A stretch of DNA of 64,000 bases. Source: Candidatus Saccharimonadota bacterium (GTDB lineage: Bacteria > Patescibacteriota > Saccharimonadia > Saccharimonadales > JAXHMH01). The position numbers and the translations under genes were made by a program. Location: positions 64,485 to 128,484 of the forward strand of contig JAXHMH010000004.1 in NCBI GenBank assembly GCA_034521515.1, given 5' to 3'. How positions within the stretch are numbered: position 1 is the stretch's first letter; every line of letters begins with the position of its first letter. The notes under the pieces were generated by a model. The model was not told the origin of the DNA. It saw only the letters and a program-made list of their open reading frames with translations, and searched no databases. Below are positions 5,031 through 49,821 of the stretch, piece by piece.

Positions 5031-5115
5031 GCGGCGGTGGCGGAATTGGTAGACGCGCTAGTCTTAGGAACTAGTATCGCAAGATGTGGAGGTTCAAGTC
5101 CTCTCCGCCGCACCA
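5031..5115 (+). tRNA. tRNA-Leu (anticodon TAG), class II, CCA encoded
   Basis: Acceptor GCGGCGG/CCGCCGC+A+CCA, D arm GCG-GAATTGGTAGA-CGC, anticodon stem CTAGT/ACTAG with loop CTTAGGA, long variable arm, T arm GGAGG-TTCAAGT-CCTCT. Confidence 0.92.
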
Positions 5116-8587: not shown

Positions 8588-8732
8588 CACTACGTACTAC
8601 GTACTACGTACTATGTACTAAGTACTAACCACCAGGCATTATCTAGGTACTAGGTACTAGGTACTATGTACTAAGTACTACGCACTAGGTACTGTGTACT
8701 AAGTACTATTATGTACTGTGTACTAAGTACTT
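8588..8732. repeat. heptanucleotide array, about 18 x TACT(A/G)NG in two blocks (8588-8629, 8641-8732)
   Basis: Read directly: cactacg tactacg tactacg tactatg tactaag tactaac ... tactagg tactagg tactatg tactaag tactacg cactagg tactgtg tactaag. Confidence 0.95.
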
Positions 8733-22845: not shown

Positions 22846-23145
22846 GTTACGCACTCAACGTATTAGTATACGTCTCGCTTACGTTACTCAAGAGAAATCA
22901 CAAACTGCACTCAACTCTGTCAGCTGCGTCGTCCTCGGAAGAAATCAAAAACTAGCACCGTGTGTGAATCCCTCAGAAGCGTTCCAGGCGTTACATTGTG
23001 CACGGGGATTTTGTTACGCACTCAACGTATTAGTATACGTCTCGCTTACGTTACTCAAGAGAAATCACAAACTGCACTCAACTCTGTCAGCTGCGTCGTC
23101 CTCGGAAGAAATCAAAAACTAGAACCGTGTGTGAGTTCCTCAGAC
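22846..23145. repeat. direct duplication, 2 x about 133 bp with a 167-bp period
   Basis: GTTACGCACTCAACGTATTAGTATACG...AAATCAAAAACTAG(C/A)ACCGTGTGTGA at 22846 and 23013; near-identical. Confidence 0.9.
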
Positions 23146-23410: not shown

Positions 23411-23758
23411 ATGGCTGAAGCCAAAAAATCATCAACCCCCGCTAAAAACGAGGTAAAGCAGCGCATACGTATACGACTAAAGGCGTATGATCATAAAGTA
23501 ATAGATCAATCCACAAAACAGATTGTCGATACAGCGATTCGTACCGGTGCTACAATTGCCGGACCTATCCCATTGCCAACTAAGCGATCAGTATTTACGG
23601 TCGTTAAAAGCCCTCACGTTTATAAAAAACACCGCGAACAATTTGAGATGCGTGTTCATAAACGACTTATCGACGTATTAGAGCCAACACCGAAGACGAT
23701 TGACTCACTCATGAATCTCTCATTGCCTGCCGGCTGTGACGCCGAAATCAAGATGTAA
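23411..23758 (+). CDS. rpsJ: 30S ribosomal protein S10
   Basis: [17 protein letters not shown]..., ends AEIKM; SD GAAAGGAG, ATG 23411 (ORF-track TTG 23405). Confidence 0.95.
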
Positions 23759-23766
23759 GGCTGCGA

Positions 23767-23886
23767 CCTGCCCGTCTTGTCAGACAGACAGGCGGGCCTG
23801 CCCGTCTTGTCAGACAGACAGGCGGGCCTGCCCGTCTTGTCAGACAGACAGGCGGGCCTGCCCGTCTTGTCAGACAGACAGGCGGG
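23767..23886 (+). repeat. four perfect tandem 30-nt palindromic units
   Basis: CCTGCCCGTCTTGTCAGACAGACAGGCGGG x4; 11-nt arms pair with one G-T wobble and one mismatch. Confidence 0.95.
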
Positions 23887-24013
23887 CGCCGAAATAAAAA
23901 TGTAGCAAGTTGGGTGCTTGCCCCGCAGTAATGTGTAGTATTTACTGACGGAATGAGGCTGAAATTAAGATGTAGCACTTGCTTCTGTAGCTTTGTGATA
24001 CCATATTAATATT

Positions 24014-47111: not shown

Positions 47112-47768
47112 ATGTTAGAGCTTTTGTTGCTTGCAGGTTTTGGTGTGATGGTAGTTCACAGTATCAGTGTCCGAGATGATGAATTCTCACTGTTGCCACG
47201 TAAAGTTAGCGATAAAATCGGTAAACTGTGGGACATTGCACATCAGGGGATGCGCGAAAACCGGTTTTTGCGTGCCGAAAAAGCTTTGCTTAGTATTTTA
47301 AAAATCGATGAGAAGAATGCCGCTGCTTATAATCGTCTGGGCATTTTGTACGCCAAGCAAAAAGAATATAAAGATGCAATTGACTGTTTCGAGATTGCTT
47401 CATCGATTGAGCCCAGCGCCTCAAGCCTTCATAACCTCGGCCTAATATATTTTGAAACTGAAAATTACCCAAAAGCTGCAACCGCCTTTGAGCACGCCTT
47501 AAAACTAGAGGATAGTCTAGCAGCGCGCCATATTGCCTATGCGAAAGTTCAAGAAAAACTAGGAAATCAGAAAGTCATGTTGGATGAATTACAAAAAGCT
47601 GTAGAACTTGAGCCCTCACAAGAAAGCTATCGGCTAATTCGAAAAGCCTACGAAGACATGGGCATGCAAGCTGAGGCAGATCTAATTGCTGAGAAGATGA
47701 AACACTCAACAAAACACACGTCTCATAGAAAGAAACGATTATCACGCCCAAAGCGTGTTGTCATTTAA
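47112..47768 (+). CDS. TPR-repeat protein with N-terminal membrane anchor
   Basis: 218 aa; hydrophobic N-terminus, repeated AxxYxxLGxxY-type TPR units. Confidence 0.7.
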   Translation: MLELLLLAGFGVMVVHSISVRDDEFSLLPRKVSDKIGKLWDIAHQGMRENRFLRAEKALLSILKIDEKNAAAYNRLGILYAKQKEYKDAIDCFEIASSIEPSASSLHNLGLIYFETENYPKAATAFEHALKLEDSLAARHIAYAKVQEKLGNQKVMLDELQKAVELEPSQESYRLIRKAYEDMGMQAEADLIAEKMKHSTKHTSHRKKRLSRPKRVVI

Positions 47769-47799
47769 CCCCTGTTCTGCTACACTTTCTCGGTACTTT

Positions 47800-47876
47800 G
47801 CCACCTTAGCTCAGCTGGTTAGAGCGGCGGTTTTGTAAACCGTAGGTCCGGGGTTCGAATCCCCGAGGTGGCTCCA
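47800..47876 (+). tRNA. tRNA-Thr (anticodon TGT), CCA encoded
   Basis: GCCACCT...AGGTGGC acceptor, anticodon loop TTTGTAA, T arm CGGGG-TTCGAAT-CCCCG. Confidence 0.92.
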
Positions 47877-47976
47877 AGAACTTTTTGCGAAAGTTCAAGT
47901 ATAAAGTAAAAAGTTATCAAGTAAAAAAGTAGCTACTACTTTATACTTTTGGGCTTTTACACTTTCAGCTACGCTT

Positions 47977-48061
47977 GCAGGAGTAGTGAAGCGGTCAAAC
48001 ACGTCTGACTGTAAATCAGATGGCTCAGCCTTCGGGGGTTCGAATCCCTCCTCCTGCACCA
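47977..48061 (+). tRNA. tRNA-Tyr (anticodon GTA), class II, CCA encoded
   Basis: GCAGGAG...CTCCTGC acceptor, anticodon stem TCTGA/TCAGA with loop CTGTAAA, long variable arm. Confidence 0.92.
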
Positions 48062-48062
48062 T

Positions 48063-48137
48063 GCCGACGTAGCTCAGCGGTAGAGCATCGCCATGGTAAG
48101 GCGGGGGTCACGAGTTCAAGTCTCGTCGTCGGCTCCA
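48063..48137 (+). tRNA. tRNA-Thr (anticodon GGT), CCA encoded
   Basis: GCCGACG...CGTCGGC acceptor, anticodon loop ATGGTAA, T arm ACGAG-TTCAAGT-CTCGT; only 1 nt after tRNA-Tyr. Confidence 0.9.
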
Positions 48138-48259
48138 TTTAACTCGCTGTGCTCGCTTATCTTTCGACCCTTAGGCTCAAGATCGAAGAGTGGTGAACCA
48201 GTCATTGTTTGTACAGCGGGTCGAATAACCCTGAGCCTGTCGAAGGGCCAGAATAACAA

Positions 48260-48345
48260 GCAGGAATAGTGAAGCGGTCAAACACATCAGAAATAACTCC
48301 CTCTGTTTGCGGGGGTCAAGCCAAGACTTGACCCTTGATTACGTG
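48260..48345 (+). pseudogene. tRNA-Tyr-derived pseudo-copy
   Basis: 48260-48291 matches the first 32 nt of tRNA-Tyr at 29/32. The anticodon stem-loop is deleted. The T-arm position is replaced by hairpin GGGTCAAG-CCAAGA-CTTGACCC. Confidence 0.6.
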
Positions 48346-48396
48346 GCCTTAATCTGTTAAACTAAACAAAATTGCATTATATAAAGGTAGGAAATC

Positions 48397-48591
48397 ATGG
48401 CCAAAAAAGGCGACAAACGAAAAATTATTGGTATGGTGAGTGAAGAAAGCGGCGGTAGGCATTATTACACCAGGAAGAACACAATGAATACTCCCGATAA
48501 GATTTCACTGCGTAAATACGACCCAGTGTTGCGTAAGCACGTTATATACACCGAGACAAAGAAAAACCTAGGACGCAACGAAGTAAAATAG
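48397..48591 (+). CDS. rpmG: 50S ribosomal protein L33 (non-zinc form)
   Basis: MAKKGDKRKIIGMVSEESGGRHYYTRKN...YDPVLRKHVIYTETK. Confidence 0.88.
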   Translation: MAKKGDKRKIIGMVSEESGGRHYYTRKNTMNTPDKISLRKYDPVLRKHVIYTETKKNLGRNEVK

Positions 48592-48613
48592 GATAGACTA
48601 AGCCTAATAACGT

Positions 48614-48645
48614 AAAACGACCACAATCAAGTGGTCGTTTTTTGT
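48614..48645 (+). terminator. intrinsic terminator of rpmG
   Basis: AAAACGACCAC-AATCAA-GTGGTCGTTTT followed by TTTGTT. Confidence 0.85.
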
Positions 48646-48661
48646 TATTTCGTAGCATACA

Positions 48662-48737
48662 TGGCAGGGGTGACAGGACTTGAACCTGCGACACCTGGTT
48701 TTGGAGACCAGTGCTCTACCAGCTGAGCTACACCCCT
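48662..48737 (-). tRNA. tRNA-Trp (anticodon CCA), CCA encoded
   Basis: Minus strand reads AGGGGTGTAGCTCAGCTGGTAGAGCACTGGTCTCCAAAACCAGGTGTCGCAGGTTCAAGTCCTGTCACCCCTGCCA. Confidence 0.92.
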
Positions 48738-48979
48738 ATATTCAATCTTTTTAGTAATGCTGTTCGTGTACCACGGCTTGATTTTACCGTATGTTCTCTC
48801 CTGCGTGCTAATTCTTGGGAAAGAAATGCTTCGTAATAGATTAACTTAAAGGGTCTCCTGCTTTTGGTTGATTCAACTTTACCGTCATTGTGATGTCTAA
48901 TACGTCGTTGCAGGTCATTAGTTGATCCGTAATAATGTTCATTATCAACTTCTGAAGTTAATACGTAAAAGTACCACAT
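48728..48979 (-). CDS. small GIY-YIG nuclease family protein
   Basis: 83 aa; WYFYVL (GIY), HYYGST (YIG), RRIRHHN, YYEAF motifs; the stop codon lies inside the tRNA-Trp acceptor stem (10-nt overlap). Confidence 0.85.
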   Translation of the reverse strand: MWYFYVLTSEVDNEHYYGSTNDLQRRIRHHNDGKVESTKSRRPFKLIYYEAFLSQELARRREHTVKSSRGTRTALLKRLNIGV

Positions 48980-48986
48980 ACAGCTA

Positions 48987-49039
48987 CTCTACCAGCTGAC
49001 CCGCCTGTCTGTCGACTAGACGGGCAGGGCTACACCCCT
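48987..49039 (-). repeat. duplicate of tRNA-Trp nt 1-24 interrupted by a 29-nt palindromic element
   Basis: 48987-48999 plus 49029-49039 equal 48714-48737. The insert at 49000-49028, CCCGCCTGTCTGTCGACTAGACGGGCAGG, is the reverse complement of the rpsJ-locus 30-mer with 1 substitution and 1 indel. Confidence 0.9.
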
Positions 49040-49161
49040 TTAACCTACAGTTATTCATGTACCGGTTTTAGCACATAACTTGCATTATACTACTGCAAAT
49101 TTCTATCTTTGTCATCCGTGTCTGCTTTATTTTGACTACCTAATCTGGTATAAATGTAGCA

Positions 49162-49821
49162 ATGAAACAAGAGCTTGCACGCACGGCGTTGATACTACTA
49201 TATGGGTTTCCTGGATCCGGTAAGACATTTTTTGCTAGACAATTCTGTGATGACTTCAAAGCGGCGCATGTTCAAGATGACCGCATACGTAATGAACTGT
49301 TTGAAAACCCAAGGTATGACAAACAAGAGAATCAGGTAGTTAACCACCTAATGACTTACATGGCAGAAGAATTTTTAGAAGCGGGCGTCAGTGTTGTTTT
49401 TGACACCAATGCAATGAGAGTAAGCCAGCGCAGAAAACTTCGTGAATTAGCTAGAAAGTCCAAGGCGCGTTGTATGCTTATATGGTCACAGATAGATACC
49501 GAAACTGCTTTCACGAGAACCACTAAACGGGATAGGCGAAAATCCGACGATAAATATGCACAAGAAATTGACCGCGCAAAGTTTGACGCTATAAGTCAAA
49601 ATATGCAAAATCCTGAGCCGACCGAAGACTACGTAGTTATTAGTGGTAAGCATACCTTTAAGACACAACGGCACATGGTTGCTAAGAAAATGTACGATAT
49701 AGGTCTGATTAGCCCTGACTTACGCGATGCCAATGCTGTTAAACCTGGCATGGTTAATCTGGTTCCGCCGCGTTCAGCCGGCCGCGTTGACTCTAGCCGA
49801 CGTAATATTAGTATTAGGTAA
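49162..49821 (+). CDS. P-loop kinase (AAA_33 / zeta-toxin-like fold)
   Basis: 219 aa; LLYGFPGSGKTFFARQF Walker A; function unknown. Confidence 0.65.
   Translation: MKQELARTALILLYGFPGSGKTFFARQFCDDFKAAHVQDDRIRNELFENPRYDKQENQVVNHLMTYMAEEFLEAGVSVVFDTNAMRVSQRRKLRELARKSKARCMLIWSQIDTETAFTRTTKRDRRKSDDKYAQEIDRAKFDAISQNMQNPEPTEDYVVISGKHTFKTQRHMVAKKMYDIGLISPDLRDANAVKPGMVNLVPPRSAGRVDSSRRNISIR

Follow-up and report, generated by a model that had tools for sequence, protein, structure and literature searches.

Several described systems place a selfish nuclease gene in or beside an essential gene. The Seg genes of the T-even phages code for GIY-YIG nucleases, are lodged among or next to transfer RNA (tRNA) genes, and spread and amplify through nuclease-induced breaks, recombination and co-conversion of the flanking DNA. 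Endonuclease open reading frames (ORFs) of fungal mitochondria, such as the GIY-YIG ORF in Allomyces atp6, insert near the end of a gene and bring a replacement end with them; a new terminal segment of an essential gene is supplied, the resident segment is displaced as a nearby pseudo-fragment, and the gene stays functional. The GIY-YIG homing gene SegB is found in the tRNA gene cluster of phage T4 (PMC13096335), and insertions with GIY-YIG ORFs, neither group I nor group II introns, were described at the tips or bases of stem-loops in ribosomal RNA (rRNA) genes of the candidate phyla radiation (CPR) (J Bacteriol 2024, PMC11270868). Here we describe a GIY-YIG gene from the same bacterial radiation, likewise associated with a structured-RNA gene, located in 64,000 nucleotides (nt) of contig JAXHMH010000004.1 of a Candidatus Saccharimonadota bacterium (the whole stretch is hereafter called the window). 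The gene runs into the 5' end of an intact tRNA-Trp gene and is preceded by a copy of the first 24 nt of that tRNA, the decoy, which is split by a hairpin. We consider it probable that this locus is a member of a widespread family of selfish, homing-like cassettes of about 300 bp which sit at tRNA 5' ends, mainly in CPR/Patescibacteria, and keep the tRNA intact.

Analysis of the minus strand indicated that the locus consists, in this order, of tRNA-Trp nt 1-11, a 29-nt hairpin, tRNA-Trp nt 12-24, 7 nt, the ORF and the intact tRNA-Trp (Table 1). The end codons of the ORF, ATA GGG GTG TAG, correspond to tRNA-Trp nt 1-10 (overlap 48737-48728), the TAG stop being nt 8-10. ARAGORN, Rfam and a repeat search reproduced to the base this layout of a split duplication, an ORF and a stop codon inside the tRNA, which had been proposed in a first-pass annotation. 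The ORF of 83 amino acids (aa) is the sole sizeable ORF just 5' of tRNA-Trp, while the decoy pieces AGGGGTGTAGC and TCAGCTGGTAGAG are the only other exact copies of those tRNA segments in the window. A chance match was rejected, since two adjacent co-linear segments of 11 and 13 nt that match exactly, not more than 300 nt from their source, are expected at about 4^-24 per position, and an assembly artefact was rejected because the same layout is present in independent assemblies and at other tRNAs. The 29-nt palindrome given in the first-pass annotation is present, has the termini CCTGCCCG...CAGGCGGG and folds as a DNA hairpin (-9.2 kcal/mol, z=-2.75), but it is imperfect, its 11-nt arms having, in the symmetric register, a T opposite a G and a C opposite an A; an alternative register, shifted by 4 nt and leaving CCTG unpaired, also folds. 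Consensus matches for a promoter were found 5' of the decoy, namely ATGACA-17 nt-TAGTAT (49115-49087) and a perfect TATAAT at 49089-49084, 44 nt 5' of the decoy +1, and in relatives a TACAAT box lies 24-31 nt upstream of the decoy or tRNA +1. A candidate internal promoter, TCGACA-18-TAGAGT, to which the hairpin loop and the piece of the tRNA D-arm both contribute, was rejected as it is not conserved in relatives.

Comparison with known classes of insertion revealed resemblances and differences in each case. An Rfam E-value scan of 47500-49500 yielded no intron or known RNA element besides tRNAs; a group I or II intron was rejected because Rfam gives only tRNAs and the downstream tRNA is complete, splicing being unneeded. 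Genomic islands and prophages that integrate into tRNA genes likewise land in a tRNA gene, whose integrity is preserved by direct repetition of one of its segments, but they duplicate the 3' end, need a tyrosine or serine integrase and are kilobases long, whereas the window cassette duplicates the 5' end, measures about 300 bp and has no gene for a tyrosine or serine recombinase inside or next to it, the GIY-YIG ORF being the only ORF between the repeats. Classical insertion sequences (IS) and miniature inverted-repeat transposable elements (MITEs) differ in having terminal inverted repeats and a fixed short target-site duplication. At the window locus no inverted repeat across the GIY-YIG ORF was found, and a search for inverted repeats of the CCTGCCCG type enclosing an ORF gave none; the repeat is direct and 24 nt long, while elsewhere its length is 9-46 nt. 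The cassette thus resembles target-regenerating homing-type elements, yet it fails the defining features of each known system, since it has no DNA-binding domain, intron, integrase or HUH transposase and duplicates the 5' and not the 3' end. No described element class with this architecture was known to the first-pass annotation, and no description of GIY-YIG cassettes with a tRNA 5' duplication was found in the full-text literature searched, a coverage that leaves out most subscription journals, so that a prior description is possible. There is a fair chance that the hairpin and the minimal nuclease together represent a new element class.

The 83-aa protein matched the Pfam GIY-YIG family PF01541 (E=6.3e-17, 62 bits against a cut-off of 22.6, residues 1-70). 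Alignment of 27 homologues revealed that R26, E62, Y48, Y49 and E50 are invariant and that Y3, Y5, G18 and H30 are at least 90% conserved; by analogy, Y3, Y5, G18, R26, H30 and E62 may be residues of the catalytic type. The AlphaFold2 model (mean predicted local distance difference test 91.8) showed the three strands and helices of the GIY-YIG alpha/beta fold, and Foldseek matched it to BH0048, Slx1, I-TevI and the UvrC N-domain, with BH0048 and Slx1 as the best matches (template modelling score 0.66-0.71 to UPF0213 BH0048/Slx1 against 0.44-0.48 to I-TevI). The profile matches in the PDB were solely 1zg2 and 1ywl, UPF0213 BH0048 and EF2693 being closest in sequence and structure, while the score to TIGR01453, 'group I intron endonuclease', was below threshold (20.8 bits against a cut-off of 56). 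In the ORF, the alignment and the model no residues beyond the catalytic domain, and hence no DNA-binding domain, were present. By sequence and model the protein is thus a domain-only, Slx1/UPF0213-like 'minimal' GIY-YIG protein and not, as the first-pass annotation had it, a homing endonuclease of the classic type. I-TevI and the Seg proteins differ in having 200 or more aa, a separate DNA-binding domain and a phage location, and their genes are without target duplication or hairpin module, whereas the window protein is an 83-aa chromosomal Slx1/UPF0213-type domain. Prokaryotic 'minimal' Slx1-like GIY-YIG proteins are already described (PMC1564403), and the UPF0213 proteins BH0048, EF2693 and YhbQ share with the window protein the fold, the family, a domain-only build and a length of about 85-100 aa, but they are regarded as stand-alone housekeeping or repair genes (PMC1564403), and a cassette with hairpin and tRNA decoy is undescribed for them.

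The wider family of the protein is large: clustering at 50% identity gave 6,365 clusters for matches with E<=1e-3, of which 485 had E<=1e-10. A single match was obtained in 2.9 million viral contigs, the protein had no PHROG match, and no PADLOC defence-system family was matched at E<=1e-3; on these grounds a phage origin or a defence role was rejected and the nuclease was regarded as essentially chromosomal. Among the tRNA-Trp-linked ORFs the proportion of nonsynonymous differences (pN) was 0.20-0.25 while that of synonymous differences (pS) was 0.74-0.93, a saturated value, which indicates that the ORF is under purifying selection. Some relatives contain two GIY-YIG stretches per protein, or an N-terminal GIY-YIG domain fused to 150-570 further residues (e.g. 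P0150, P0151, P0164, P0161 and P0179).

A scan of one genome per species gave more than 581 relatives, of which the best 80 loci, and not a random sample, were fetched; all compared sequences are metagenome assemblies. In 15 of the 80 loci a same-strand tRNA starts between -22 and +18 nt from the ORF stop, while about 0.1 would be expected by chance, and in three further loci a tRNA lies at most 154 nt downstream with only decoy or hairpin DNA between. The tRNAs at these 18 loci represent eight identities: Lys, Arg, Asn, Ser, Phe, His, Trp and Ala. Just upstream of the ATG, 17 of the 18 loci carry a duplicate of the 5' part of their own tRNA, which starts at +1 (or at most 4 nt before), ends at nt 9-46 and lies promoter-proximal, 11-33 nt from the ATG. 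A GC-rich hairpin splits or caps 15 of these 17 decoys, and the other two (L017 and L044) adjoin a terminal inverted repeat. The U8-A9-G10 of the tRNA serves as the ORF stop in several clades, and the C-terminal residues vary with the tRNA, being GV or GA. Among 376 distinct tRNAs in all fetched DNA, used as a control, 22 upstream copies of the first 10 nt were present: 14 belonged to GIY-YIG cassettes, one to an ORF-less cassette-like locus (L112) and seven were others, mostly full-length tRNA paralogues. Multiple cassette copies per genome, tandem units (L047, L077 and L218) and ORF-deleted units (L062, L218 with the last 12 nt of the ORF kept, and L112) were also identified. When a consensus RNA structure was attempted, the decoy leaders of different tRNA types aligned poorly because the hairpin positions differ between them. 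The recurrence of the layout at eight kinds of tRNA agrees with the proposal in the first-pass annotation of a mobile-looking insertion that regenerates its essential target, and relatives with the GIY-YIG gene always present and no duplication, which would speak against it, are not what was found: the duplication is present in relatives.

Outside the CPR, a Bacteroidota-type tRNA-Trp (L112 3723-3771, minus strand, and L151) is preceded by its own nt 1-14 and 19-28 with the hairpin TCCCGATGACTATCGGGA between them and no ORF; the copy ends just 7 nt before the real tRNA-Trp, an ORF-less version of the layout.

The Trp clade is composed of the window locus, L087, L088-90, L221-2, L081-6 and L218, the closer homologues having 62-71% aa identity. 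In six Trp lineages the hairpin is placed at the nt 11/12 junction (±1 in L218), in either orientation and with differing loops, while the 3' end of the decoy lies at different positions (nt 19, 23, 24, 29 and 30). Each Trp decoy is identical to the tRNA of its own genome, e.g. AGGGGTGTAGC, AGGGGTATAGC and AGGGGCATAGT+ACAACGGT, and the decoys follow lineage-specific tRNA changes such as G7A in L088 and the quite different D-loop in L081. Alignment of L088 and L221 revealed that decoy and hairpin, loop included, are identical at 58 of 58 positions, while the ORF is 86.8% identical, its third positions 78% and the upstream 120 nt about 50%; the conserved block starts exactly at the decoy +1. These values point to the hairpin-split decoy being a constrained, or recently homogenised, cis-module. 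It is hardly credible that the locus is a neutral relic of a tandem tRNA-Trp duplication whose decayed first copy happened to gain an ORF: tandem tRNA duplications are common and erosion predicts the differing 3' limits, but decoys showing 100% identity with the tRNA of their own genome, in lineages with saturated synonymous ORF sites, are not neutrally drifting, and the same layout at eight tRNA identities, the hairpin at a fixed junction and the L088/L221 block contradict this origin as well.

The same data bear on whether two independent parasites met at this site, the ORF having inserted once at nt 24/25 with a duplication and an unrelated palindromic MITE having later hit the dead copy. 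Hairpins of this family do occur without an ORF (the 4x array at 23767-23887, L208, L060 and L076), both orientations are found at the same site, as independent movement or replacement would allow, and other small hairpins lie in tRNA-Leu 3' pseudo-copies with no ORF nearby. Against this stand the presence of a hairpin in 15 of 17 decoys of just 20-45 nt, though the family is rare elsewhere in about 1.4 Mb, the shared junction of the six Trp lineages, and the 58/58 identity against 78% at ORF synonymous sites. Chance secondary insertions cannot give this pattern, the hairpin being at most a dependent partner that shares the nuclease's site, and we regard an origin from two parasites as quite unlikely. 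The palindrome, taken in the first-pass annotation for a secondary interruption of the dead copy, is on the same evidence a conserved and integral module.

Many of the decoy hairpins form one family with the termini CCTGCCCG...CAGGCGGG or their reverse complement CCCGCCTG...CGGGCAGG, which is also found in Lys, Arg, Asn and His cassettes; in its members the terminal octamers are fixed and the loops variable, with mismatches that are conserved or 4 nt left unpaired as a tail. In the 1.4 Mb of fetched DNA the family is almost confined to decoys, and apart from one 4x array the decoy copy is the only one in the window, so that an abundant genome-wide MITE was rejected. The repetitive extragenic palindromes with their associated transposases (REP/RAYT, REPIN) and the IS200/IS605 elements similarly combine a small nuclease gene with short imperfect palindromes, also as ORF-less copies and arrays. 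They differ in that their enzymes are HUH (Y1) transposases and in that they neither are linked to tRNA 5' ends nor regenerate a target gene, whereas here the partner is a GIY-YIG protein and no Y1 (HUH) transposase was present among the ORFs listed around the locus. By analogy with these systems the hairpins are probably recognised in folded form.

A hairpin of this kind would also suit a circular or site-specific cassette, in which hairpin, tRNA nt 12 to y, spacer, ORF and tRNA nt 1-11 move as a small circle or single strand and the split tRNA mimic is an attP/attC-like site. Campbell-type integration with the crossover left of the hairpin would give exactly the observed order; folded DNA that is recognised by a protein typically has such fixed octamers, conserved mismatches or 4-nt tail, and variable loops; within a clade the decoy 3' limit varies but the hairpin junction does not; tandem units exist; and Slx1-type enzymes cut branched and stem-loop DNA, as the titles of PDB entries 6sei and 7cq4 state. 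GIY-YIG enzymes are, on the other hand, hydrolytic nucleases that are not known to transfer or ligate strands, the compared sequences showed neither a circle junction nor an excision scar, unequal crossing-over is equally able to make tandem units, and the replacement between L208 and L088, described below, extends 5' of the decoy and fits recombinational repair better than precise excision. Such a cassette, in which the crossover would take place at the base of the folded hairpin, in the manner of integron attC or IS200/IS605 recombination, and host replication or repair would seal the joints, is in our view improbable.

About half of the 80 loci are not at tRNAs and are bracketed by inverted repeats of 12-24 bp, e.g. 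ACCCCCACACCAA...TTGGTGTGGGGGT. Such elements were found among L006-L080 (e.g. L007 2985-3275 and L051 2975-3285), and their repeat sequence tracks the ORF clade. A rough neighbour-joining tree, a simple distance tree of 80-aa proteins, showed that ORF clades track the repeat type while the tRNA-linked forms are scattered over several clades. ORF-less, MITE-like hairpin derivatives lie near inverted-repeat elements in L052, L019, L065, L055 and L060. In L024, L028, L049, L065 and L078 the element is inserted at the conserved ...SNIAEG motif inside genes for a four-helix-bundle '23S rRNA IVS protein', a selfish gene nested in another multicopy gene. The CPR rRNA insertions are probably related to these inverted-repeat-bounded elements; they differ from the window cassette in that they were reported for rRNA genes only, tRNA being unmentioned, and in that neither target duplication nor a decoy with hairpin was reported (PMC11270868). 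At L040 (2907-3300) an inverted-repeat GIY-YIG element lies directly 3' of a tRNA-Gly whose last ~15 nt (GTCTCCCGCTCCA) are duplicated after the element, a mirror arrangement with the 3' terminus duplicated.

Filled and empty sites were compared among relatives, as the first-pass annotation had suggested. A metagenome scan with a 32-nt tRNA-Trp pattern returned mostly Bacteroidota tRNA-Trp genes, and also L208, L112 and L151. L208 has the same tRNA-Trp and an identical 3' flank as L090, and on the AAA_33 side its flank is that of L088/L090 up to ...CACGTTTTT, the flanks being 100% identical; neither GIY-YIG gene nor decoy is present at its tRNA-Trp. The segment of about 165 nt between the shared flanks of L208 includes a TACAAT box of its own and, nested in another palindrome, a hairpin that belongs to the family; in the filled alleles L088/L090 the decoy, hairpin and ORF are preceded by an unrelated promoter region of about 130 nt. 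The comparison indicates that the cassette was recently gained or lost between genomes with identical flanks by replacement of a segment, which would fit recombinational repair with co-conversion, gain and loss being both possible. L216/217 are empty at a site syntenic with the filled L081, the flanks being too diverged for border placement, and a neighbour-anchored search via AAA_33 homologues met mostly rearranged neighbourhoods; L216/217 and L211 emerged from it as empty sites, but none with clean borders. Polymorphism for the cassette at a conserved target among close relatives, a mark of homing genes, was thus found in two comparisons (L208 with L088/L090 and L216/217 with L081). Large serine recombinase genes were also found immediately 3' of tRNA-Trp on the opposite strand (L081-L086 3286-4995; L221 1092-2537); these lie on the other (3') side from the cassette, and tRNA-Trp appears to be used in some lineages as integration site by a conventional element too.

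Presence or absence between genomes with identical flanks also weighs on a domesticated role, in which the GIY-YIG protein serves the host in a tRNA-related or repair function and the split tRNA mimic is an autoregulatory leader or operator. I-TevI represses its own promoter through a non-cleavable mimic of its homing site. The strong purifying selection on the ORF, a promoter-proximal decoy 11-33 nt from the ATG which follows the sequence of the resident tRNA and exceeds synonymous sites in conservation, and the recurrent fusion or linkage of prokaryotic Slx1-like genes to TrmH and COG4123 methyltransferases (PMC1564403) are in line with such a role. It is disfavoured by the polymorphism, by the eight different tRNA identities, by multiple copies per genome, tandem arrays and ORF-deleted remnants, and by the sister elements with inverted repeats inserted inside other genes, all hallmarks of selfish elements, and we give it only a small chance. 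An operator role for the decoy is compatible with a selfish homing-like cassette and does not replace it.

For the selfish cassette we infer the following mode of cleavage and transfer. The cassette, composed of a decoy from +1 split by the conserved hairpin, a short spacer and the 83-aa nuclease ORF running into the tRNA, would be lodged between the tRNA promoter and the intact tRNA, and the essential tRNA would never be lost since its 5' segment is present twice. The nuclease gene would be co-transcribed with the tRNA from the promoter-like region 5' of the decoy to the putative terminator at 48606-48649. By analogy with Slx1, a structure-specific cut may be made at or near the hairpin junction (nt 11/12 for tRNA-Trp) or at the equivalent place in a cassette-less tRNA gene; the break would be repaired by recombination with a cassette-bearing allele, whereby hairpin, ORF and a fresh tRNA 5' segment would be copied, i.e. 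homing with co-conversion of the upstream region. The hairpin would disable the decoy as a functional tRNA half or cleavable target, would shorten the direct repeat from 24 nt to 11+13 nt, and is a possible recognition site of the nuclease. RNase P cleavage at the tRNA +1 would strip the stop codon from the mRNA, tying nuclease expression to tRNA maturation and limiting it.

Several observations weigh against this explanation. The intact downstream tRNA still holds any recognition sequence of the nuclease, so that self-immunity is unexplained, and an 83-aa domain is without obvious means of sequence-specific recognition. One ORF clade spans Arg, Lys and Asn tRNAs, and since each decoy matches its new tRNA such jumps between tRNA species are hard to explain by simple homing; the flips in hairpin orientation are likewise unexplained. 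Between L208 and L088 about 165 nt are replaced by about 440 nt, reaching about 130 nt 5' of the decoy, which is no clean insertion, and the 'empty' L208 allele itself holds a hairpin of the family, so that the direction of gain or loss and the exact borders of the element are not fixed by this pair; the direct repeat, too, leaves the insertion point formally undefinable.

A broader interpretation, which we offer tentatively, is a new class of prokaryotic mobile element in which a structure-specific nuclease of the Slx1 type, consisting of its domain only, and a cognate hairpin make up a minimal mobilisation system with ORF-bearing and hairpin-only forms, comparable to REP/RAYT except in the kind of nuclease. 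Its insertion sites would be the termini, or the tips of stem-loops, of highly conserved essential genes (both ends of tRNAs, the 3' end of rpsJ, stem-loops of rRNA), and it would persist by restoring the disrupted end, the split decoy being a cis recognition or recombination site. If the cassette is what we propose, it would be among the smallest autonomous selfish DNA units known, with about 300 bp and an 83-aa protein, and would represent an unrecorded parasitism of an essential gene in which the tRNA 5' end, the promoter and the U8-A9-G10 stop are borrowed and the first 10-45 nt duplicated. It would provide a testable biological role for the prokaryotic Slx1/UPF0213 'minimal' family, whose function is unknown, and tie this family to a defined DNA hairpin as a possible substrate. 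It would also be a systematic source of pseudo-copies of tRNA fragments and gene ends in CPR genomes, with a bearing on annotation and on the inference of recombination in uncultured lineages, and tool developers may take an interest in a nuclease this small, with its structured recognition element in the DNA and its conserved target.

Table 1. Features of the tRNA-Trp locus and of the rpsJ region in the window, with their positions, strand and the evidence used
Feature	Position	Strand	Evidence
tRNA-Trp(CCA), intact, with encoded CCA	48737..48662	-	ARAGORN; Rfam RF00005 model, 70.4 bits
83-aa GIY-YIG (Slx1/UPF0213-like) ORF	48979..48728	-	ATG start, TAG stop; Pfam PF01541
Decoy part 1, AGGGGTGTAGC = tRNA-Trp nt 1-11	49039-49029	-	Exact match to 48737-48727
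29-nt GC-rich hairpin CCTGCCCGTCTAGTCGACAGACAGGCGGG between decoy nt 11 and 12	49028-49000	-	Sequence and folding
Decoy part 2, TCAGCTGGTAGAG = tRNA-Trp nt 12-24	48999-48987	-	Exact match to 48726-48714
7-nt spacer TAGCTGT ahead of the ATG	48986-48980	-	Sequence; differs in relatives, not conserved
Promoter-like region 5' of the decoy	49115-49084	-	Consensus matches only
Bidirectional terminator-like hairpin between convergent rpmG and tRNA-Trp unit	48606..48649	strand-neutral	Inverted repeat and consensus match only
30-nt hairpin with the same arms (CCTGCCCGTCT...AGACAGGCGGG), in four perfect tandem copies	23767..23887	+	Tandem Repeats Finder (TRF), sequence
Three copies of the rpsJ end codons (AEIKM-stop), at 23737-57, 23884-904 and 23954-74	23737..23974	+	Repeat search, translation

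The neighbouring genes of the cassette code for an AAA_33 kinase, a YgjP-like protein and L33. Copies of gene ends were also identified elsewhere in the window. The three copies of the rpsJ end differ mostly at synonymous positions and only the first is joined to the gene, while the 4x hairpin array, for which Rfam gave only sub-threshold microRNA-like noise, separates the functional 3' end (copy 1) from the displaced copy 2. This arrangement suggests that the rpsJ 3' end was repeatedly invaded and regenerated, and by analogy it looks like the end-replacement process of the mitochondrial ORFs. In the latter the ends concerned are 3' ends of organellar protein-coding genes and the new copy has synonymous differences, whereas in the tRNA-Trp cassette a bacterial tRNA 5' end is concerned, the copy is identical to the resident sequence and the displaced copy is split by a hairpin. 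The tRNA-Leu(tag) at 5031-5115 (+) is followed by two tandem units of 155 nt (region to 5425), each with a copy of the tRNA-Leu 3' half from anticodon loop to CCA, a different (foreign) variable arm and no ORF; two small hairpins, CCATATCATCCGATATGG and CCCTGTCGGATGACAGGG, sit in the T-loop of these copies, and the units mirror the tRNA-Trp locus on the 3' side. At about 48263-48290 (+) a 26-nt tRNA-Tyr 5' fragment, GGAATAGTGAAGCGGTCAAACACATC, identical at 24 of 26 positions to the nearby tRNA-Tyr, is followed by a GGGTCAAG...CTTGACCC hairpin (to ~48340), in the 260-nt gap from the tRNA-Thr/Tyr/Thr cluster to rpmG. The rpsJ end copies, the tRNA-Leu units and the tRNA-Tyr fragment share this theme, and a general process by which gene ends are regenerated in association with hairpins therefore seems to operate in this genome. 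The tuf-rpsJ intergenic region (22846-23144, +) contains a 132-nt repeat in two copies that are 98% identical and spaced 167 nt apart, with no match in Rfam, and TRF identified a degenerate 7-nt tandem repeat, ACTAGGT/ACTAAGT, of about 20 copies at 8589-8731 (+).

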